Assembly (NCBI GenBank): GCA_963827685.1
Contig: CAWHBU010000002.1
Span: 1,215,912-1,279,911 of the forward strand
Direction of reading: 5' to 3'
Origin: an uncultured delta proteobacterium
GTDB taxonomy: Bacteria > Desulfobacterota > BSN033 > UBA1163
Length of the DNA: 64,000 bases
Shown here piece after piece: positions 3,739 to 45,986 of this stretch; position 1 is the stretch's first letter, and each line of letters begins with the position of its first letter. The position numbers were made by a program, and so were the translations under genes. The notes under the pieces were generated by a model. It was not told the DNA's origin. It did not search any database and saw only the letters and a list, made by a program, of their open reading frames with translations.

Positions 3739-4497
3739 TTATTGAACAGGTAGGTTAAATAAAGGCGAGTGAGAATTAGAAGTCCCTTTTAAAGGAAAGG
3801 TCCCATTAGATTGAGAATAGACCTGCTGAAAGAAACCAAAAATATCTATCTCTCCTCCTTTTGCTTTCTGCCAGAGATCATAAAGGTGATGAGTGGTAAT
3901 CAAAGTCATATTGTGCCGGCTTAAGAAATGGCTCAACTCTTTGGAGATATGACTCACCTGGCCTCTTTCAGAAAGTGGGAGGCGGATATGGGTGCTCGCA
4001 ATAATCAAGGATTTCTCGTTCTCTCTTTTTTCTTTCTCAAACTGCAAAGCCCGGTTGATCTTGGGATGGTTTCCTTCGACCTCCCCTTCACTCATCAAAA
4101 TCTGTACTCCGAAAGCCATGTGGGTCTCGGGAATTTTAACAATGCGATCCACCGATTGGTAGTTGACACCGGTTGATATCTTGAACCCCAGATCCTTGAA
4201 GATGGAATGAACGGTATCCATTAATAACAATTCACTTTTTGGCCAGAGCAGCGATTCAATAATAGAAAAATCCTGATCTCTGATCGCTGTCGATTCCTTC
4301 TTCGTGGCCTTGTCGATTTCTGACTTCAAAAAACTCTTCCGCGCCGTCTTTTTCTCGGAGCTTCTTTTTTCAATTCTGCTTACTACAAGCATCGCAATCA
4401 GGCAACCCAAAGGGATGAAGAGCTTCAGCTCTTCGGAGAATTTGAGAGCGCTAAAGATCGCAAGAACTGCAAGCAAAAGCTGTAGTATCCCTAACAT
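3739..4497 (-). CDS. Membrane-anchored hypothetical protein, possibly a degenerate Mrr-like restriction endonuclease fold
   Basis: Two N-terminal hydrophobic helices; IFKDLGFKIS...VDRIV...FGVQIL resembles the Mrr-type D...QxK core. Confidence 0.6.
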   Translation of the reverse strand: MLGILQLLLAVLAIFSALKFSEELKLFIPLGCLIAMLVVSRIEKRSSEKKTARKSFLKSEIDKATKKESTAIRDQDFSIIESLLWPKSELLLMDTVHSIFKDLGFKISTGVNYQSVDRIVKIPETHMAFGVQILMSEGEVEGNHPKINRALQFEKEKRENEKSLIIASTHIRLPLSERGQVSHISKELSHFLSRHNMTLITTHHLYDLWQKAKGGEIDIFGFFQQVYSQSNGTFPLKGTSNSHSPLFNLPVQ

Positions 4498-4747: not shown

Positions 4748-5740
4748 TTAATGGGATGACGGCGCAAAAAGATATTCAACCGTTCGATTCAACATCCTCG
4801 CTCCCTTCACTTCTGTTTCGAATAGAGGGACGATCGCTCTTACCTTGTCCCCGAATATCTTCCAAATCTCTGCCATATGTTCGTCCTGCATCTGAATTCG
4901 GTTGAGGACAAACTCCACAGTATCTTTTCCGACCTGATCCTTTTGAATGACTCCGTTGACCACCACACCACCAACAGGAATTCCGAATTCATGGAACCAG
5001 TTAATGAAGCGGGTGATGACAGCAATGGGAAGGCTCTCGGGGAGTGTCACGAAAAAGAAAGCCGTGAGGGCTTCATCGGTCAGGAGGTTTTTCGCACTGC
5101 CCATTCTATCCTTGAAACTTAAGAGGTAATCCAGGAGAGGGTCCTTTTTCTCTTTTTTCGAGAAAGAGAGGATTTCCCTTAACGACTTTGCTTCCTCTCG
5201 GCTCTTCAGCATCTTCTCCACCCAAAGGGAGTAGACCTTCGACATTCCGAGAAGGCGTCTCGCATTCGCTGTGGGGGCAGTATCGAAGACGTAAAAATCA
5301 TATTCATCCTTGAACATGAGATCCACCATATTTTCAAACATAGCCGATTCTTCGAAGGCAGGATTCATCGTCGCCGATTCGATGAAATCTTCTGCTTTGG
5401 TCGTGATATCTGCAAATTTGAGAAACCAGTTGATCTTCTCTCGGATTTCTCGTTTGGACCGTTCGATCGTATCCCGTGTATCGATCTCGAAGGCATAGCA
5501 TTTTTCTTCGTCGCAGACGATGGCTGCTCTTCCAAAGACATCTTTTTCTAATAAGTTAGAAAGGCTATGGACGGGATTGGTCGATGCCAGTAAAGTCCTC
5601 TTCCCCTGTTTGGCCGACCAGAGAGCTGCTGCCCCTGCCATGACGGTCTTTCCAACACCTCCTTTCCCCCCGAAAAAGATATATTTCAAACGAGGGTGAT
5701 CTTTTAAGAATTTTCCCATACTGATCGTAATTTGGTCCAT
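4748..5740 (-). CDS. ArsA/Get3-family ATPase (single domain, switch-I Asp replaced by Asn)
   Basis: GGKGGVGKTV P-loop, STNPVHSL, DTAPTANA. Confidence 0.9.
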   Translation of the reverse strand: MDQITISMGKFLKDHPRLKYIFFGGKGGVGKTVMAGAAALWSAKQGKRTLLASTNPVHSLSNLLEKDVFGRAAIVCDEEKCYAFEIDTRDTIERSKREIREKINWFLKFADITTKAEDFIESATMNPAFEESAMFENMVDLMFKDEYDFYVFDTAPTANARRLLGMSKVYSLWVEKMLKSREEAKSLREILSFSKKEKKDPLLDYLLSFKDRMGSAKNLLTDEALTAFFFVTLPESLPIAVITRFINWFHEFGIPVGGVVVNGVIQKDQVGKDTVEFVLNRIQMQDEHMAEIWKIFGDKVRAIVPLFETEVKGARMLNRTVEYLFAPSSH

Positions 5741-5747
5741 TTTTAAA

Positions 5748-5797
5748 CTCCCGCCTATTGCTTTTTTCTGCTTACTGCTTTCTGCCTACTGCTTACT
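5748..5797. repeat. Degenerate 7-nt tandem repeat (CTGCTTA-like)
   Basis: CTGCTTA CTGCTTT CTGCCTA CTGCTTA between the two ATPase genes. Confidence 0.65.
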
Positions 5798-5799
5798 AA

Positions 5800-6786
5800 T
5801 TAAAAATTCCCAAACATCGCCTTGGCCATTTTTCCAATCATTGGAAGGCCGGTTACATCTCGTTCCATCTCAGGCACAGATGCTAAAATCTGTTTATCAA
5901 AAGTGGTGTCAATCACCTTCAGGTAATGTTCCTCCATCGTGAGACGATTTTTTAAATATTCGGGAATATTTTGGTCCCTCAATCCAAGAGGCAAAACCCG
6001 ATTAATGATATATCCACTTAAAGGAACGTCAAACTTAGCAAAAAGTTCTGCCGCCTTTAAGGTGTCCTTAATGATCATCTCCTCAGCGGTCAAAACAAAA
6101 AAGAAGGCTGTCTTTTCCTTATCGGTCAGGATCCTTGAGGATTTGTTGATGCGTTCTTTGATATAAAGAAGTTCTTTCAAGATGGCGTCTTCATCCAATT
6201 CTTTTTCTCGCTGCATCACAGCTGCCACCTGATCATACTCCCTCATCTGTTCTCGGAGAGCAGTGATCTTACTGATCCACGCATCATAGACAGACGCCAT
6301 ACTTAGGTAGTAAAGGGCATGACCTAACGGCACCAAATCGTAAATGTAGTAGTCGTAGCCTCCTTTGACGACAATATCCACCACCTCATCAAAAATGGCG
6401 CTTTCCTCCATCGCGGGCTCTGCCGCAGCAGCCTGAATATAGCTCTCGATCTCTTCTGGAATCTTATTCATTCCATACATATCGAAGATCTTCTGCCTAA
6501 TCTCCTGCTGATATTCCTTCACACGACGGTCGGCGTCAATCTCTTGTGCATAGAGGTTGGGAATGATCTCTATTGGCCCCTTGCCAAAGATATCCCTTTC
6601 GAAGATATCGGTTAACGAGGCCTGCGGATCAACAGAGAAAACCAAAACCTTTTTCCCTTTTTTGGCCAAATAATAGGCCGTAGCAGCGGAGAAAGTAGTC
6701 TTTCCCAAACCTCCCTTTCCGCCAAACATGATGTACCGCCGATCCGGATACTTTTCAAATATATCTGCTAATGGAATGTCAATCAC
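5800..6786 (-). CDS. ArsA/Get3-family ATPase (single domain)
   Basis: GGKGGLGKTT P-loop, SVDPQASL, AQEID, DLVPLGH. Confidence 0.9.
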   Translation of the reverse strand: MIDIPLADIFEKYPDRRYIMFGGKGGLGKTTFSAATAYYLAKKGKKVLVFSVDPQASLTDIFERDIFGKGPIEIIPNLYAQEIDADRRVKEYQQEIRQKIFDMYGMNKIPEEIESYIQAAAAEPAMEESAIFDEVVDIVVKGGYDYYIYDLVPLGHALYYLSMASVYDAWISKITALREQMREYDQVAAVMQREKELDEDAILKELLYIKERINKSSRILTDKEKTAFFFVLTAEEMIIKDTLKAAELFAKFDVPLSGYIINRVLPLGLRDQNIPEYLKNRLTMEEHYLKVIDTTFDKQILASVPEMERDVTGLPMIGKMAKAMFGNF

Positions 6787-6794
6787 CCCTTTCT

Positions 6795-6901
6795 CGGTTA
6801 TCGGGTTACTTGGGTTATTGGGTCTTTTGGGTTTCTTGTGTTTAATGATTTCATAACTCTAAAAACCCTATGAACTCAATAAACCCGATGGACCCAATAA
6901 A
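6795..6901. repeat. Inverted degenerate 9-nt tandem repeats
   Basis: GGGTTACTT-GGGTTATTG-GGTCTTTTG-GGTTTCTTG facing AACTCTAAA-AACCCTATG-AACTCAATA-AACCCGATG-GACCCAATA. Confidence 0.65.
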
Positions 6902-6915
6902 TGTTCGTTGGCCTT

Positions 6916-7191
6916 TCAGGCCAAGCCATCCGTAAAATCTTTTTCCCTCAGCATTCTCCGCTTCCAGGTAGAAATCTGGGGAACTACATAAGGCAATAAT
7001 CTTAATGAATAGTAAGGGGGTAGAATCGGCACACCCAGCATGTCTCCCATGGTGATGAGGATGAAGAGGTGCTCCATGCTCGCCCTCGTCTTCAAGGCAA
7101 ATCGGTACGAGTCGTGAGCTGCCATCCCATAGACGAACTCTTTAACCGCTTGGAAAAATCCTGCTTTTTTCTTTTTCTGCTCTTCCGTCAT
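6916..7191 (-). CDS. Small CstA/ArsA-associated protein (resembles the cory-CC-star family)
   Basis: EHLFILITMGDMLGVPILPPYYSLRLLPY motif; lies between cstA and the ATPases; GGGAGG RBS before ATG 7191. Confidence 0.75.
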   Translation of the reverse strand: MTEEQKKKKAGFFQAVKEFVYGMAAHDSYRFALKTRASMEHLFILITMGDMLGVPILPPYYSLRLLPYVVPQISTWKRRMLREKDFTDGLA

Positions 7192-7508
7192 AAAAAAGCA
7201 TCCTCCCAAAAATTATTTCACGTCACGCCGGAATACCTGCCTGCTAACAGGCAGGCATTACCGACGGACGATAATTGTTTCGCCCCCAGTAAATGGGGAC
7301 GCTGCATACTACGAAGCAATACTATAACACAAAAATTCTCGGTCTGCCTATCCCTTTGCGAGCAAACATCACTTCTATTAAAATTTCCCCTCCCTCCCTT
7401 TAATATCTACTAAAGGGGAAAAGGGGGGATTATTCGCTTTCACCGCTTCGAGCCTTTAACTTTACCTGCCCGTCGGGCCTTCACGCAACCGGGAACTTCG
7501 AACTTCTC

Positions 7509-9194
7509 TTATGCCTTTGCAGGCGCTCCTTCTGCTCGTATAACTTTGTAACGGCTAAAGGCCTTCAGTCCTTCCACCGCCAGAATGATCGCGGCGATGA
7601 CCAGGAAGATTGCAACCAAAATCATCAGTGTGTTCCCCACCAGGGCCTGTCCCTTAACCGCCCCTAAATAAACCTGTTTGGAAAGCCTCCAGGCGGTAAC
7701 CACCAGGGCAGCCGTGGTCGTGAAAAACATAAAAATCATCGGGTAAAAGGTCCATCCATAAGGTTTCCCCTGAGACATCAACCACGCTGTCATCAGCAAC
7801 AAGGCCAGGGAGGCCATCAATTGGTTGGCTCCTCCAAAAAGTATCCAGAGGTATTGCCACCATCCTGTCAAGATCAGGATCAGTGTCAGAAGGCTGGCAA
7901 TAATGGTCCCAATATGGACATTCTTAAAGATAGGGCTGATATCGCCCAACATTTCAGAAGTGGCCACTCTCATGAATCGAATCACAAGCTGCAGGATGGT
8001 AACTGCCAGGACGATTAACATAACGCCACCATAAGATCTCCCGACGGCAGCTGGAAGCCCCAATGCCCCTAAGAATTTCGACACTCCTGCTGAAAATACG
8101 CCAATAGGTCCTTTAGCAATGGCGGCCGTATATTCCGAAGACGAGGCGAAAATCGTTCCAGCAATGACCAGAGCGAACACGCCAAGCATCATCTCCACAA
8201 ACATTACACCGCCACCTACTGGACGGGCATCTGTTTCGTACTCTAATTGCCTGGCTGTACCTGAACTTGAAACAATACTGTGCCATCCGGATACTGCCCC
8301 GCAACCGATGGTTACAAACATGATGGGCCAAAGAGGCCCAATTCTGATATTAAAGCCTGTATAAGCGGGTAGTGTAAAATCAGGATGGAGCACAAATACT
8401 CCGATGATCCCAAATAAGAGACCCAAGAAAATAATGTAGGAAGTGACATAGTTAATGGGAAGGGCAAATCTCCAGATCGGCAAAACCGCTGCAAAGTAGC
8501 AGAAGACAAGCGCAGCGATCGCCCAAACAAGTCGACTATTGGCAATATCCGCTCCAAGGATACTGTCAGAGGGAGCAACCGATCCAAGCCATATCCCGAA
8601 CAACGAAATGGCGACTGTGATAACAGTGGTCAGAATAATATCCTTCTTCCAGCGATAGATCATCTGCCCAGCAAGAACTCCAGCGCCGGTGAAAAAAAGC
8701 CATGCCATGGGAGAACTTTTCGCCCCGATGGCTGCATCGACAACAATATTTCCAAAGGCGCCGGCGATGAGAAGCAGAAAGAAATAGATAAAGCAGAGTA
8801 GAACGATCCGAGCCCGCGGCGAGATCAATTTGTAGCTTAATCCGCCAAAGGAAGCTCCTTCATTTCGCATGGCCACCACGGCGCTCGAGTAGTCATGAAC
8901 CCATCCAATGAATAACGCACCAAGGCAGAGCCACAGCAAACAGGGGAGCCACCCCCATTGAATGGCAATGATTGGACCAACGACTGGTGCTGCGCCGGCA
9001 ATGGACTTGAATTGGTACCCGAACAGGATGTTCTTACTGGTGGGCATGAATTCCACCCCATCCATATACATCTTGGCCGGAGTGGCCCTCTTCGGGTCTG
9101 ACTTTACAATTTTCGTATCCACGTACTTTGCATAGAAGCGGTAACCGATAAAAAAGACGATAAACCCTATGATCATAACAACAACTGAATTCAT
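7509..9194 (-). CDS. cstA: Carbon starvation protein A family transporter
   Basis: TPAKMYMDGVEF, SIAGAAPVVGP, IGCGAVSGWHS and LFGGANQL motifs; many TM helices. Confidence 0.93.
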   Translation of the reverse strand: MNSVVVMIIGFIVFFIGYRFYAKYVDTKIVKSDPKRATPAKMYMDGVEFMPTSKNILFGYQFKSIAGAAPVVGPIIAIQWGWLPCLLWLCLGALFIGWVHDYSSAVVAMRNEGASFGGLSYKLISPRARIVLLCFIYFFLLLIAGAFGNIVVDAAIGAKSSPMAWLFFTGAGVLAGQMIYRWKKDIILTTVITVAISLFGIWLGSVAPSDSILGADIANSRLVWAIAALVFCYFAAVLPIWRFALPINYVTSYIIFLGLLFGIIGVFVLHPDFTLPAYTGFNIRIGPLWPIMFVTIGCGAVSGWHSIVSSSGTARQLEYETDARPVGGGVMFVEMMLGVFALVIAGTIFASSSEYTAAIAKGPIGVFSAGVSKFLGALGLPAAVGRSYGGVMLIVLAVTILQLVIRFMRVATSEMLGDISPIFKNVHIGTIIASLLTLILILTGWWQYLWILFGGANQLMASLALLLMTAWLMSQGKPYGWTFYPMIFMFFTTTAALVVTAWRLSKQVYLGAVKGQALVGNTLMILVAIFLVIAAIILAVEGLKAFSRYKVIRAEGAPAKA

Positions 9195-9309: not shown

Positions 9310-9337
9310 ATTATATGCAAATAATTCTTTATGTCAA
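9310..9337 (-). promoter_or_regulatory. Sigma70 promoter of the cstA operon
   Basis: Minus strand TTGACA-N16-TATAAT. Confidence 0.7.
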
Positions 9338-23740: not shown

Positions 23741-25636
23741 TCATTCCCGTTCCTTCATTCTGTGCGGGCGTGTCAAATTCTCTGGCTTCATAAATTCCTT
23801 CCATTCTCCTTCTGTCATTAGCTTTCGTTTCAGAACTATTTCTTTAACGCTGCGACCTGTTTCCAATACGTCTTTAACAATCTCTGAAGCTTTTTTGTAG
23901 GTGATTATAGGGATTAAGAAAGTAGCCAATCCGGGACTTTCCTCCACTCTTTTCCGAAGATTTTCTTTTTCTTTTTCGCTTACCGTGACGTCCTTTATAT
24001 GATCCGCCAGAATCCTTGTTGCACGAGTCAACATTTCTAACGATTGAAAAATGTTAAAACCAATAATGGGTTCGAAAGCGTTGAGTTGCAGTTGACCGGC
24101 TTCAGCCGCCATGGTGACAGTCAAATCATTTCCGATAACCTGAAAGGCGACTTGATTCACTACTTCAGGAATGACAGGATTAACTTTGCCAGGCATAATC
24201 GATGAACCCGCTTGGACCGTGGGGAGTTTAAGATCACCAAAACCGGCTCTGGGTCCGCTATTCAATAATCTCAAGTCGTTGCAAATCTTAGACAATTTAA
24301 CGGCAAGTCGTTTCAGTACACTGGAGAATAAAACAAAAGCCCCTGTATCCCATGTAGCTTCCACGAAATCTTTTGCTGGCCTGAGATTAATATCATCGAT
24401 ATGGACGTCATTTTTTATAATGTTGTTAAGTTGATTTATTACCTTCGCGCAATACATTTCGTCGGCCGTCACGCCAGTACCGATAGCTGTCCCTCCCAAA
24501 TTGATTTGTTCAAAGAGTTTAGCTGCGCCGTCAAGTTTATCAACATCCTCCTCAATCGTTTCAGCAAAAGCTCCAAATTCCTGCCCGAGAGTCATGGGAA
24601 CGGCGTCTTGGAGTTGCGTCCGCCCCATTTTAATTATATCTCTAAACTCTTTCGCTTTCTCTCTGAATTTTTCTATAAGATATCCCATTGCCCTCGTCAG
24701 ATCTTTATAGGTTAACACTATTGTTAAACGAATAGCGGTAGGATATACATCATTGGTAGATTGACACATATTAACATGGTCATTGGGATCAACAATTACT
24801 CCATTACTTCTCGGATAACCAAGAATTTCCTGCGCACGTTTCGCAATCACCTCATTTGCATTCATATTAGTGGATGTTCCAGCACCGCCTTGTATTACAT
24901 CGACAACAAATTGACTAAGCAAAAAAGAGTTTCCCTGAATGATTTCGTTACAAGCATGAATAATAGCTTCGGCTCTGCTCAATTTTTTTTTAGGGTTTGG
25001 CTCATTTTTCATGTCCTCCGAGTCTTCATTGGCTCTAGCAGCTGCTTTTTTTATCATGGCTAGACTTCGGATTAGCGAAGGAAAATGAGATAAACCGATA
25101 CCCGTTATACAAAAGTTTCTCTTGGCCAATTCTGTTTGGGCACCATAATAAGCATTAATGGGTATTTCCAAGAATTGGCCTTCATGTATCGGATGTTCTA
25201 CTTTTCGCATCTCGCCAATTGAAAGACACTTAAGACGACTGAAAGCGATATGAGCAACCTGTTTGAAGATTTTATTGGCTATATCTCTCTCGTCTATCAG
25301 AAACTTTTCAATATCCCGTCTTCTCCACCATAGCACTGTGCTATCGAGTACTGCTCGACACGAAACAGTGTGAGGTTTATCCGGTTCAAACAGCACCCCT
25401 TCACCAACGATCTCATTTTTAAAAAGGCGTGCAACATGTTCTTCTTTGCCTCCTTTCCCCCTAAAAAGATCAAGCTCGCCATCTTTGATAATAAGCAACC
25501 CTCTTCGTGCTTTACCTTCTTCAATTTCACAAGAAATCTCTCCTAGCCTACAATTCCTTTCCACAATATGTTTTGCTACTTTTTCTATTTGATCTCCTGT
25601 CAGATTAGGAAAAACATATCTCAAAGTATCTTTCAT
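23741..25636 (-). CDS. aspA: Cyclic-nucleotide-binding domain fused to aspartate ammonia-lyase
   Basis: N-terminal IIKDGELD...IVGEGVLF...HTVSCRA cNMP-like barrel; QGGAGTSTNMN, QSTND, GRTQLQDA, GSSIMPGKVNP. Confidence 0.88.
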   Translation of the reverse strand: MKDTLRYVFPNLTGDQIEKVAKHIVERNCRLGEISCEIEEGKARRGLLIIKDGELDLFRGKGGKEEHVARLFKNEIVGEGVLFEPDKPHTVSCRAVLDSTVLWWRRRDIEKFLIDERDIANKIFKQVAHIAFSRLKCLSIGEMRKVEHPIHEGQFLEIPINAYYGAQTELAKRNFCITGIGLSHFPSLIRSLAMIKKAAARANEDSEDMKNEPNPKKKLSRAEAIIHACNEIIQGNSFLLSQFVVDVIQGGAGTSTNMNANEVIAKRAQEILGYPRSNGVIVDPNDHVNMCQSTNDVYPTAIRLTIVLTYKDLTRAMGYLIEKFREKAKEFRDIIKMGRTQLQDAVPMTLGQEFGAFAETIEEDVDKLDGAAKLFEQINLGGTAIGTGVTADEMYCAKVINQLNNIIKNDVHIDDINLRPAKDFVEATWDTGAFVLFSSVLKRLAVKLSKICNDLRLLNSGPRAGFGDLKLPTVQAGSSIMPGKVNPVIPEVVNQVAFQVIGNDLTVTMAAEAGQLQLNAFEPIIGFNIFQSLEMLTRATRILADHIKDVTVSEKEKENLRKRVEESPGLATFLIPIITYKKASEIVKDVLETGRSVKEIVLKRKLMTEGEWKEFMKPENLTRPHRMKERE

Positions 25637-44556: not shown

Positions 44557-45986
44557 TGTCAAGCCAAAATAGAAATGTCCTCTTCTTACCAAAATAGAAA
44601 TGTCCTATTCTTCAGATTTGAGATTCTAAGAGTTTTTCTCTGTTATAGGGATGTTTCCTAATCTTGAACTTCCTCCAAGGATGATCAGCCGGAGGAATGT
44701 AAGTCTTCCTCCTTCTCACAATAGCCGGCTGTTTCTTCTCTCTTAGTGGTCTCTCAGTGATCTCTTTAAATCTCAAAGCTCGACCTTTATGGGTCATGAC
44801 CATTGATCCGTCGATTCGATCCTGAACCATCACCTTGGAGGCCTTGATCGTATCCTCAACCTGATAGAGCTTCCTGTTATGAGCCACCGTAAAGTCATTT
44901 CTCAGTGCTCGCTCTGTCTTAATGCATAAGATCGCATCCAGATCCACCCCCTTAGGTAAGGGCCTGTGGAAATCGTCTTTCTCCTGGGGCCAAACAGAGA
45001 ACCTCTTGTTATAGAGAGGAAGATATTCCTCTAAGAACTGATTGCCTTCCTCAATCGTCCTGATCCCTCTTAAACGCATCTCCTTGACCAGCCTGTCCTG
45101 AAGGGTCCGAAAGAGTCGTTCAATCCGCCCCTTGGCCTGCGGCGAATGGGCATGACTGACCTCTACCCCCAACTCTTTTAAGGCCCTCTCAAACTCACTT
45201 AACGGCCCCACGTCATTTAACTCGTCCTCGATCGTTGGCTTGGCCGTCGACTTATAGGTCGAATGCTTATCCAAATACACCTTCATCGGTAAACCGTTTT
45301 TCTTGATATAACGCTTGAAGCTATCCATCGCCGGGATCGTCCCCTCATACTCATAGAACCTCCCAAAGGCTTCCCCGGTAGCATCGTCAATATAGCTCAT
45401 CAGAACACAGGGGCCACCTCTGTCCTCAAACCAAGCGTGATGGGACCCGTCCATCTGTACCATCTCGCCGTAATGATGCTTCCGCTCCCTCCACTGACGA
45501 TGCCTCCCTCTCTTGCGGCTCTTCTTCCAATCCCCCGCCTCGATGAGCCACCTCCGTAAGGTCTCATCACTGATCTCTATCCTACCCCTTTCCAGAAGCT
45601 TCTCCGAGGCCAGGGTCGGCCCAAAACCCTTGTACTGTGCCCGGTAAAGTCGGATCACCCTGTCCTTAATCTTATAGGGTATCCTCCGGTTTGATGGCCT
45701 CCCTCTCGATTTGTGTATGACTCCCCTGTTCCCTTCATTCCTGATCCGCTTCACGATCCTCCGAATTTGCCTACCACTCAAGGAAAGAATCTCTGCTGCC
45801 TCTACCCGCTTGATGACCCTCTCCAGGACCTTCTGGATGACATGTAACCGCTTTAACTCTCCCTGACGTACCATGATCATGTCCTCTCCTGCCATCATGC
45901 CCTCCTCTGAAAAAGGGCATCTTAGCATGTCGAAAAGAGGACATTTCTAAATTGGTCAATTAGGACATTATCATTTTGGGATTACA
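44557..45986 (-). mobile_element. IS1202-family (ISNCY) insertion sequence with 16-bp target-site duplication
   Basis: TGT...ACA ends; IRs TGTCAAGCCAAAATAGAAATGTCCT / TGTAATCCCAAAATGATAATGTCCT with duplicated subterminal AATGTCCT motifs; direct repeat GAAAAAAATTTGAGGA at 44541-44556 and 45987-46002. Confidence 0.92.
44612..45898 (-). CDS. ISNCY/IS1202-family DDE transposase
   Basis: GFGPTLASEKL, QMDGSHHAWF, IDDATG, YLDKH, SPQAKGRIER...LQDRL, HPWR. Confidence 0.93.
   Translation of the reverse strand: MMAGEDMIMVRQGELKRLHVIQKVLERVIKRVEAAEILSLSGRQIRRIVKRIRNEGNRGVIHKSRGRPSNRRIPYKIKDRVIRLYRAQYKGFGPTLASEKLLERGRIEISDETLRRWLIEAGDWKKSRKRGRHRQWRERKHHYGEMVQMDGSHHAWFEDRGGPCVLMSYIDDATGEAFGRFYEYEGTIPAMDSFKRYIKKNGLPMKVYLDKHSTYKSTAKPTIEDELNDVGPLSEFERALKELGVEVSHAHSPQAKGRIERLFRTLQDRLVKEMRLRGIRTIEEGNQFLEEYLPLYNKRFSVWPQEKDDFHRPLPKGVDLDAILCIKTERALRNDFTVAHNRKLYQVEDTIKASKVMVQDRIDGSMVMTHKGRALRFKEITERPLREKKQPAIVRRRKTYIPPADHPWRKFKIRKHPYNREKLLESQI

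Follow-up and report, generated by a model that had tools for sequence, protein, structure and literature searches.

A remodelled CstA-family carrier encoded with a conserved Asp/Asn pair of Get3/ArsA-like ATPases in a delta proteobacterium: a candidate ATP-coupled cassette

Why should a carrier of the CstA family be encoded with two ATPases of the Get3/ArsA fold, one of which has Asn in place of the catalytic Asp? The question is raised by a locus in a 64,000-nucleotide stretch of DNA (hereafter the window) from an uncultured delta proteobacterium (GenBank assembly GCA_963827685.1, contig CAWHBU010000002.1, positions 1,215,912 to 1,279,911). An earlier note on the window had described four co-oriented genes, namely cstA, an open reading frame (ORF) of 91 amino acids (aa) and ATPases A and B, and had proposed that the ATPases form a heterodimer with one active site that energises, gates or inserts the carrier. 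All four ORFs lie on the minus strand where that note had placed them:

9194-7509, minus strand: cstA, CstA-family carrier, 561 aa, APC/LeuT fold (PF02554, E 1e-134)
7191-6916, minus strand: cstX, 91 aa, DUF7990/PF25952 family, likely adaptor or client
6786-5800, minus strand: ATPase A, 328 aa, GTG start, single-domain Get3/ArsA fold, predicted hydrolytic subunit
5740-4748, minus strand: ATPase B, 330 aa, single-domain Get3/ArsA fold, predicted to bind ATP without hydrolysing it

The motifs of the two ATPases, the signature Lys in each and their common xPAxEESAxF segment are as the note described. A carries GKGGLGKTT, SVDPQASL (Asp53, codon GAT at 6630-6628) and DLVPLGH; B carries GKGGVGKTV, STNPVHSL (Asn55, codon AAT at 5578-5576) and DTAPTANA. 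The proteins are 33% identical, and the common segment reads EPAMEESAIF in A and NPAFEESAMF in B. Both passed the PF02374 and TIGR00345 models (on the latter A scored 223 bits and B 206, cut-off 135), the Get3-type helix 7-9 insert region is present in both, and their closest solved structures are the archaeal single-domain proteins 3ug6 and 3zq6. The catalytic switch I Asp expected of the TRC40/GET3/ArsA family is found in A and is missing from B. This Asp is reported to place the attacking water, and the signature Lys to act across the dimer (PMC10248533); in yeast Get3, D57 is reported as catalytic and D57N as trapping the ATP-bound state (PMC12506534), which bears out the claim that Asp-to-Asn replacement at this position blocks hydrolysis.

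We aligned A and B sequences from the window and from 37 loci picked for diversity among 84 loci that encode an ATPase pair. Asp53 of A and Asn55 of B are each present in 38/38 sequences, B being sampled down to 46% identity, and the signature Lys is kept in 37/38 A and 38/38 B sequences. Switch II of A had been called divergent, which holds for the middle of the DTAP motif; the D..P.GH pattern is intact, with D150, P153, G155 and H156 each in 38/38, and the Gly-His is missing from B instead (A158 in 38/38, N159 in 37/38). B has also lost the second P-loop Thr (GKT-V). As B retains both P-loop lysines (K26 and K31), the switch II Asp153 and Asn262, it likely still binds ATP without hydrolysing it. 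In A the corresponding residues, the second P-loop Thr included, are all in place.

The pairing of Asp with Asn is conserved among relatives of this locus. In a search centred on B and reaching 80-97% identity, the Asn was present in 80/80 genome loci; 78 of these have A immediately before B and 69 have all four genes, and in each of the 11 incomplete loci B lies no more than 1.5 kilobases (kb) from a contig end. B was not seen without A wherever the contig allowed a look. Among proteins, the query and its 120 closest relatives all carry the Asn (121/121). Deeper relatives, drawn from a 50% cluster search, a metagenome scan and regions from the phylum, include loci L090 and L177, in which B is 50% and 46% and A 50% and 45% identical to the window proteins and the Asp/Asn split is kept; some distant B-like representatives have no recognisable motif (P0200, for example, reads SLSTLHSL). 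With some loci redundant, the 101 B-type ORFs encode the Asn by AAT (60) or AAC (41), and the 95 A-type ORFs have GAT or GAC at the Asp. The ratio of nonsynonymous to synonymous substitution rates (dN/dS) is 0.013-0.088 for B (14/14 comparisons), 0.028-0.091 for A and 0.015-0.12 for CstX. Because the pairing is conserved and purifying selection acts on it, decay is ruled out: the Asn of B is a conserved trait, and the possibility that it is private to this genome is contradicted by the 80 loci, the use of both Asn codons and the low dN/dS.

In a tree of 59 sequences (quick method, without bootstrap), A forms one clade (SH-aLRT 99) and B another (100), and these two clades group with one canonical single protein (support 99). 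Their internal branching largely matches, and the CstA tree largely repeats the same order. The ATPases of one-ATPase cstA cassettes retain the catalytic Asp. The simplest reading of A and B is an asymmetric heterodimer with one firing site; the Get3 D57N precedent makes this a natural and likely reading, and in this respect the earlier interpretation holds, while the energising, gating or insertion of CstA stays a prediction. Complex prediction with A, B, two ATP and CstX gave 0.33, 0.30 and 0.51; unrelated partners gave 0.00 and 0.00, and a control in which B was replaced gave 0.54. We count these scores neither for nor against a complex.

Does the carrier differ from CstAs without such a pair? 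The window CstA matches PF02554 and is 28% identical to E. coli CstA/BtsT, but it failed NF011590, the equivalog model of the E. coli-type pyruvate/proton symporter, at 183.5 bits against a cut-off of 1188. Its structural model (predicted local distance difference test, pLDDT, 90) has the APC/LeuT fold; the match to KimA has VIA Z 24.9 and root-mean-square deviation 3.5 over 378 aligned, with similar values for BasC, ApcT and Nramp, and a search by sequence for solved CstA relatives found none. In alignment with E. coli CstA and BtsT, His-His becomes Tyr-Gln, Arg-Asp becomes Ile-Asn, Asp becomes Gln and a new Lys appears, so that the window protein has Y60-Q61-F62-K63, I247-N248 and Q402 in place of H-H-x-A/S/T, R-D and D. 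Judged from the aligned ranges and the helix pattern of the model, residues 54-80, 244-269 and 382-416 would be transmembrane helices (TM) 1, 5 and 8 of the APC/LeuT fold.

We surveyed these residues in 152 near-full-length CstAs from all loci, classed by their neighbouring genes. Beside a D/N pair, the Asp at position 402 is lost in 74/76, and the two exceptions are second, distant paralogues in the same loci. Only an Asp-type ATPase was detected for 11 CstAs: ten belong to one-ATPase cassettes and keep all five residues (10/10), and the eleventh (L089) has a pair in which the beginning of the B ORF is disrupted. Among the 65 with no ATPase in the flank, a class in which the flank is only ~1.3 kb for 30 and the canonical set favours top Pfam scorers from one phylum, Asp402 is kept in 61, and the other four are of the remodelled type and lie near contig ends. 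Lys63 is usual in remodelled CstAs, with Asn in three and Arg in one. The remodelled proteins form a single clade, with support 100 in a tree built without the diagnostic columns, and eight ionisable residues (D45, D101, R110, H305, E320, E334, R406 and R409) are common to both CstA types. Since E. coli CstA, with these core residues intact, is reported to be proton-driven (PMC7730263), either coupling or substrate appears to have changed in the remodelled clade; uptake of pyruvate in the manner of E. coli is improbable, and the conserved neighbours of the 84 pair loci gave no clue to the substrate. The link between the remodelling and the ATPase pair is suggestive only, as each is a single evolutionary event.

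The third component is the small protein, which corresponds by size and position to CstX. It scores 0.99 to DUF7990 clusters in the Atlas, and its homologues carry PF25952. CstX is helical, its middle segment is moderately hydrophobic (best 19-residue hydropathy 1.5), and modelled alone it has no confident fold (pLDDT 59, predicted TM score 0.27). It scores 38 bits where NF041419 (cory-CC-star) requires 80 and, having no Cys at all, lacks the C-terminal Cys-Cys of that family, to which it does not belong; a CstX-like ORF beside a single canonical ATPase (L134) passes that model at 127 bits, and the two families are therefore related. In loci where cstA is inverted or has changed place (L089, L090, L095, L169, L171 and L174), cstX is still found immediately before A.

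Our preferred reading, to which we give a probability of roughly 40%, is that a one-site A/B heterodimer docks via CstX on the remodelled CstA and drives or gates transport. A and B would pair as in Get3/ArsA dimers, with the signature lysines reaching across the interface, and, by analogy with Get3 biochemistry, only the site of A would split ATP while that of B holds it. The dimer would dock through CstX on CstA and act on the carrier as ArsA does for arsenite carriers; gene context is what points to the CstX link and to transport coupling. With one site permanently clamped on ATP and the other cycling, the dimer would stay attached and deliver a single stroke in each cycle, behaviour similar to that of ABC exporters with a degenerate site. 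The observations behind this reading are the gene order, its conservation, the co-divergence of the parts, the Asp/Asn split and the loss of charged residues in the CstA clade.

Several points weigh against it. Contacts between any two of the parts are predicted ones, and the coincidence of CstA remodelling with ATPase duplication is a sample of one. Lys63 could itself carry a proton, as Lys158 does in ApcT, and eight ionisable residues remain in both CstA types. The lost residues may have bound substrate rather than coupled transport to protons, and the available text of the CstA papers assigns them no role. Because one-ATPase cassettes have a normal CstA core, a carrier need not be uncoupled to have an ATPase gene beside it. 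The Get3-type insert of both ATPases fits a chaperone role equally, and we know of no ATP-driven carrier with the LeuT fold. We regard as rather unlikely the boldest form of the proposal, in which a LeuT-fold carrier has become an ATP pump, its ion-coupling residues having been lost in the lineage where a Get3-like ATPase split into a firing and a clamped subunit, with CstX, perhaps as unlike chains, transmitting the stroke. If the pair does power the carrier, it would be a primary active transporter on the APC/LeuT fold, whose transporters are, to our knowledge, ion- or exchange-driven, and the many prokaryotic Get3-like ATPases that form a large group still in want of explanation would gain a function. 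In any event, a natural one-site Get3 dimer would test whether one hydrolysis suffices for the Get3/ArsA cycle, and one-ATPase cassettes, whose CstA core is normal, offer a control already at hand.

A heterodimer with one dead site is common to the preferred reading and to two of its rivals. In the first of these, which we consider somewhat unlikely, A and B are a dedicated Get3-like chaperone that takes CstX, or stretches of CstA, into its hydrophobic groove for delivery to the membrane or assembly there, CstA being an ordinary ion-coupled carrier. The helix 7-9 insert, the archaeal single-domain structures nearest to A and B, and the want of a confident fold in CstX alone are consistent with such a role, as is the single-TM CstY-like gene of some relatives (5/84 pair loci), and Farkas et al. 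suggest that bacterial homologues of this kind chaperone hydrophobic sequences (PMC6593721). Against this, most CstAs have no adjacent ATPase (the 61 canonical ones, within the flank lengths given above), the change in the carrier core of the same clade is left unexplained, and neither a CstY-like profile of five sequences nor PF07946 detected a CstY in this genome (94.5% complete). The CstY-like protein of L177 has no CCDC47 match in Pfam.

Distinctly less probable is a switch or sensor, in which CstA signals its solute via CstX to A/B, or the dimer senses ATP or, together with a thioredoxin-like partner, redox state, and toggles the carrier without energising it. A non-hydrolysing site suits nucleotide sensing, loss of coupling residues also fits a sensing transporter, and 21/84 pair loci encode a thioredoxin-like protein, with CxxC in most copies; a copy lies elsewhere in this genome. 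However, no regulator or output gene is conserved among the gene clusters of the 84 pair loci, A has no cysteine, and the only two of B (C76 and C81) are not conserved, which leaves neither ATPase with a CxxC zinc clasp. It is improbable that A and B are separate homodimers, or that the Asn site of B hydrolyses slowly with help from its partner: the A-B heterodimer is a predicted one, and Get3d proteins with degenerate catalytic motifs are reported still to hydrolyse ATP (PMC10248533), but B has A beside it wherever the contig extends far enough to tell, their trees mirror each other, and in B the second P-loop Thr and the Gly-His of switch II are gone along with the Asp. A split arsenite-pump ATPase, or a decaying duplicate in B, is largely refuted and very improbable, despite database names that read 'arsenite-transporting ATPase' and a split arsA pair with Acr3 reported for Alkaliphilus (cited in PMC2963123), given the absence of Cys from A, scores of 96-132 bits for both proteins on the arsenical-pump equivalogs TIGR04291 and NF041417 (cut-offs 650 and 800), the lack of an Acr3-family match on this contig and the low dN/dS of B.

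The cassette has optional and unlinked parts. A second cstX is present in 19/84 pair loci. Window-type CstX was found in 30 of 251 genomes of the phylum, and a second, more distant copy in 20 of these 30 versus 3 of the other 221, counts that include kin and are not independent. The genome studied here has two unlinked copies, at C5:357654-357896 (L085:5643-5936; 53% identical) and C4:507551-507802 (L086:5519-5815; 48%), with no cstA or ATPase alongside; many relatives are likewise, in varied contexts. In a poorly resolved CstX tree the unlinked copies group, with weak support, with one upstream copy. The two unlike ATPases may have a counterpart in a pair of unlike CstX chains. The 44 longer CstX homologues include several in which CstX is fused with ATPase A, with another CstX or with the thioredoxin-like protein, and we rejected these fusions as evidence of association: among the 29 homologues examined, most fusions have frameshift-like junk at the joint, and all those with an ATPase are single sequences. 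P0137 has a clean appearance but is known from one contig.

The unlinked thioredoxin-like CxxC protein of this genome is encoded at C4:478114-478524 (L189:6115-6525) and belongs to no named family, its Atlas clusters being unnamed with a minority of DUF1525. In L177, a 183-aa protein of no known family (L177:7166-7717) is encoded directly downstream of B; its relatives stand beside thioredoxin-like or cstA genes in six other loci, with none in this genome, and it is possibly a further optional part of the module.

The locus itself is a single gene row with gaps of ~317, 129 and 59 nucleotides between cstA, cstX, A and B. One further feature precedes it:

9310-9337, minus strand: promoter-like site TTGACA-16-TATAAT, sigma-70-type, 12/12 consensus match, ~115 nucleotides upstream of cstA

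Looser promoter-like sites occur at chance level (6 observed, 7.5 expected), and the five terminator-like matches all fall within coding sequence, their number again at chance. The window's cstA is the sole CstA gene of the genome, and the neighbours of the cassette are unrelated genes. No acr3 lies nearby, as the note had stated: the four PF01758 (Acr3/SBF family) matches in the genome are all on other contigs. Inspection of the ORF lists by eye revealed no arsR/B/C/D-like ORF; these genes were not the object of a library scan. The closest relatives carry the labels Thermodesulfobacteriota or Deltaproteobacteria, and B has no match at E 1e-30 among plasmid sequences. None of the RNA runs searched contained half of the locus words. 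Contigs from relatives in four metatranscriptome libraries span all four genes, one bridging A-B and one cstX-A; we do not take them to establish transcription or a single transcript.

Downstream of B lies a gene (3739-4497) for a 252-aa protein that has a hydrophobic segment at its N terminus and matches nothing in Pfam or NCBIfam; it was rejected as a part of the module, since the 23 loci that contain it are all close kin, a sign of synteny. Elsewhere in the window, 23741-25636 encodes a fumarase/aspartase-family lyase fused to an N-terminal cyclic-nucleotide-binding domain, and 44612-45928 (minus strand) is an ORF with helix-turn-helix domains that was labelled a transposase by eye. The genome has further ArsA-like ATPases. 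A fourth, with the canonical Asp (L087:4850-5827; C2:718861-719835), adjoins aminotransferase-like and 2-oxoacid oxidoreductase-like genes, named by eye. A single-domain canonical one lies in a gas-vesicle-like cluster (L088; C3:671000-683000) with GvpL/F bearing a DnaJ domain, a GvpN-like AAA protein and Hsp20; the gas-vesicle ArsAs of the 2010 paper discussed below are reported as two-domain, unlike this one (PMC2963123).

How does the cassette compare with known systems? Yeast Get3 and archaeal 3ug6/3zq6 share the fold, motifs and helix 7-9 insert of A and B, and B naturally bears a change of the D57N type made in the laboratory. Get3, however, forms a homodimer whose two sites are equal, and it has a CxxC zinc clasp and the Get1/2 receptor, whereas here there are two paralogues and no CxxC. 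The mycobacterial Rv3679 and Rv3680 (BagA/BagB) are said to form a heterodimer. They are an adjacent Get3-like pair in one PDB entry (6bs3) and are very distant from A and B (E 1e-4 to 1e-9). ArsAB and split ArsA/Acr3 provide reported precedents for an ArsA-fold ATPase that energises a secondary carrier, and for a split pair (PMC2963123, PMC6593721); unlike those systems, the cassette lacks metalloid cysteines and ars genes, and its carrier has another fold.

Closer in layout are CstA-YbdD and BtsT-YjiX-YjiA of E. coli, which likewise combine a CstA-family carrier with a small protein, btsT also with a P-loop NTPase gene. These carriers are proton-driven pyruvate symporters with His-His, Arg-Asp and Asp intact, unlike the window CstA, the small proteins belong to PF04328, which CstX does not match, and YjiA is annotated as a GTPase. 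In E. coli K-12, btsT-yjiX-yjiA (4587909-4591279, L190) has the same layout with an unrelated small protein and a GTPase. The view that characterised CstAs need no partner calls for some qualification: YbdD is reported in one study as needed for E. coli CstA uptake (PMC5847655), and yjiX and the P-loop GTPase gene yjiA come after btsT. Full complementation by cstA alone is also reported (PMC7730263). These arrangements suggest that carrier, small protein and P-loop NTPase are a recurring design.

The nearest precedent is the work of Castillo and Saier (2010), who listed 26 cases of cstA associated with arsA, introduced the names CstX and CstY, and put forward CstX as the link between CstA and ATP hydrolysis (PMC2963123). 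Their CstA-CstX-ArsA gene set is present here in one gene row, and their clusters likewise have single-domain ATPases of ~330 aa and no ars genes (arsR/C/D being judged by eye here). They reported adjacent ArsA pairs in two organisms (cluster 15, Par and Sth; 31% and 25% identical) and found the Asp of SxD replaceable only by Asn; from its description, cluster 15 has the architecture of the present adjacent, divergent pair (33% identical), to which it may be related. Their cluster 14 type has a single-TM CstY of ~210 aa, not found in this genome, and their claim that operons with cstX always include cstA is contradicted by the unlinked cstX copies here and in relatives. As far as the text of that paper available to us goes, it suggests homodimers, and neither assigns the Asn to one member of the pair nor describes a remodelled CstA clade. 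A word count of Farkas et al. 2019 (PMC6593721) gave no mention of CstA, and a literature search that left subscription journals mostly uncovered found no experimental study of the cassette and no paper that ties the Asn to one pair member or describes the remodelled CstA. The earlier note had called both the function and the asymmetric split form uncharacterised; this holds for experiment within that search, but the cassette, adjacent ArsA pairs, the Asp-to-Asn variant and the idea of ATP coupling were already published in 2010 (PMC2963123). What is added here is that the CstAs of the two-ATPase cassettes form one clade with replaced core residues.

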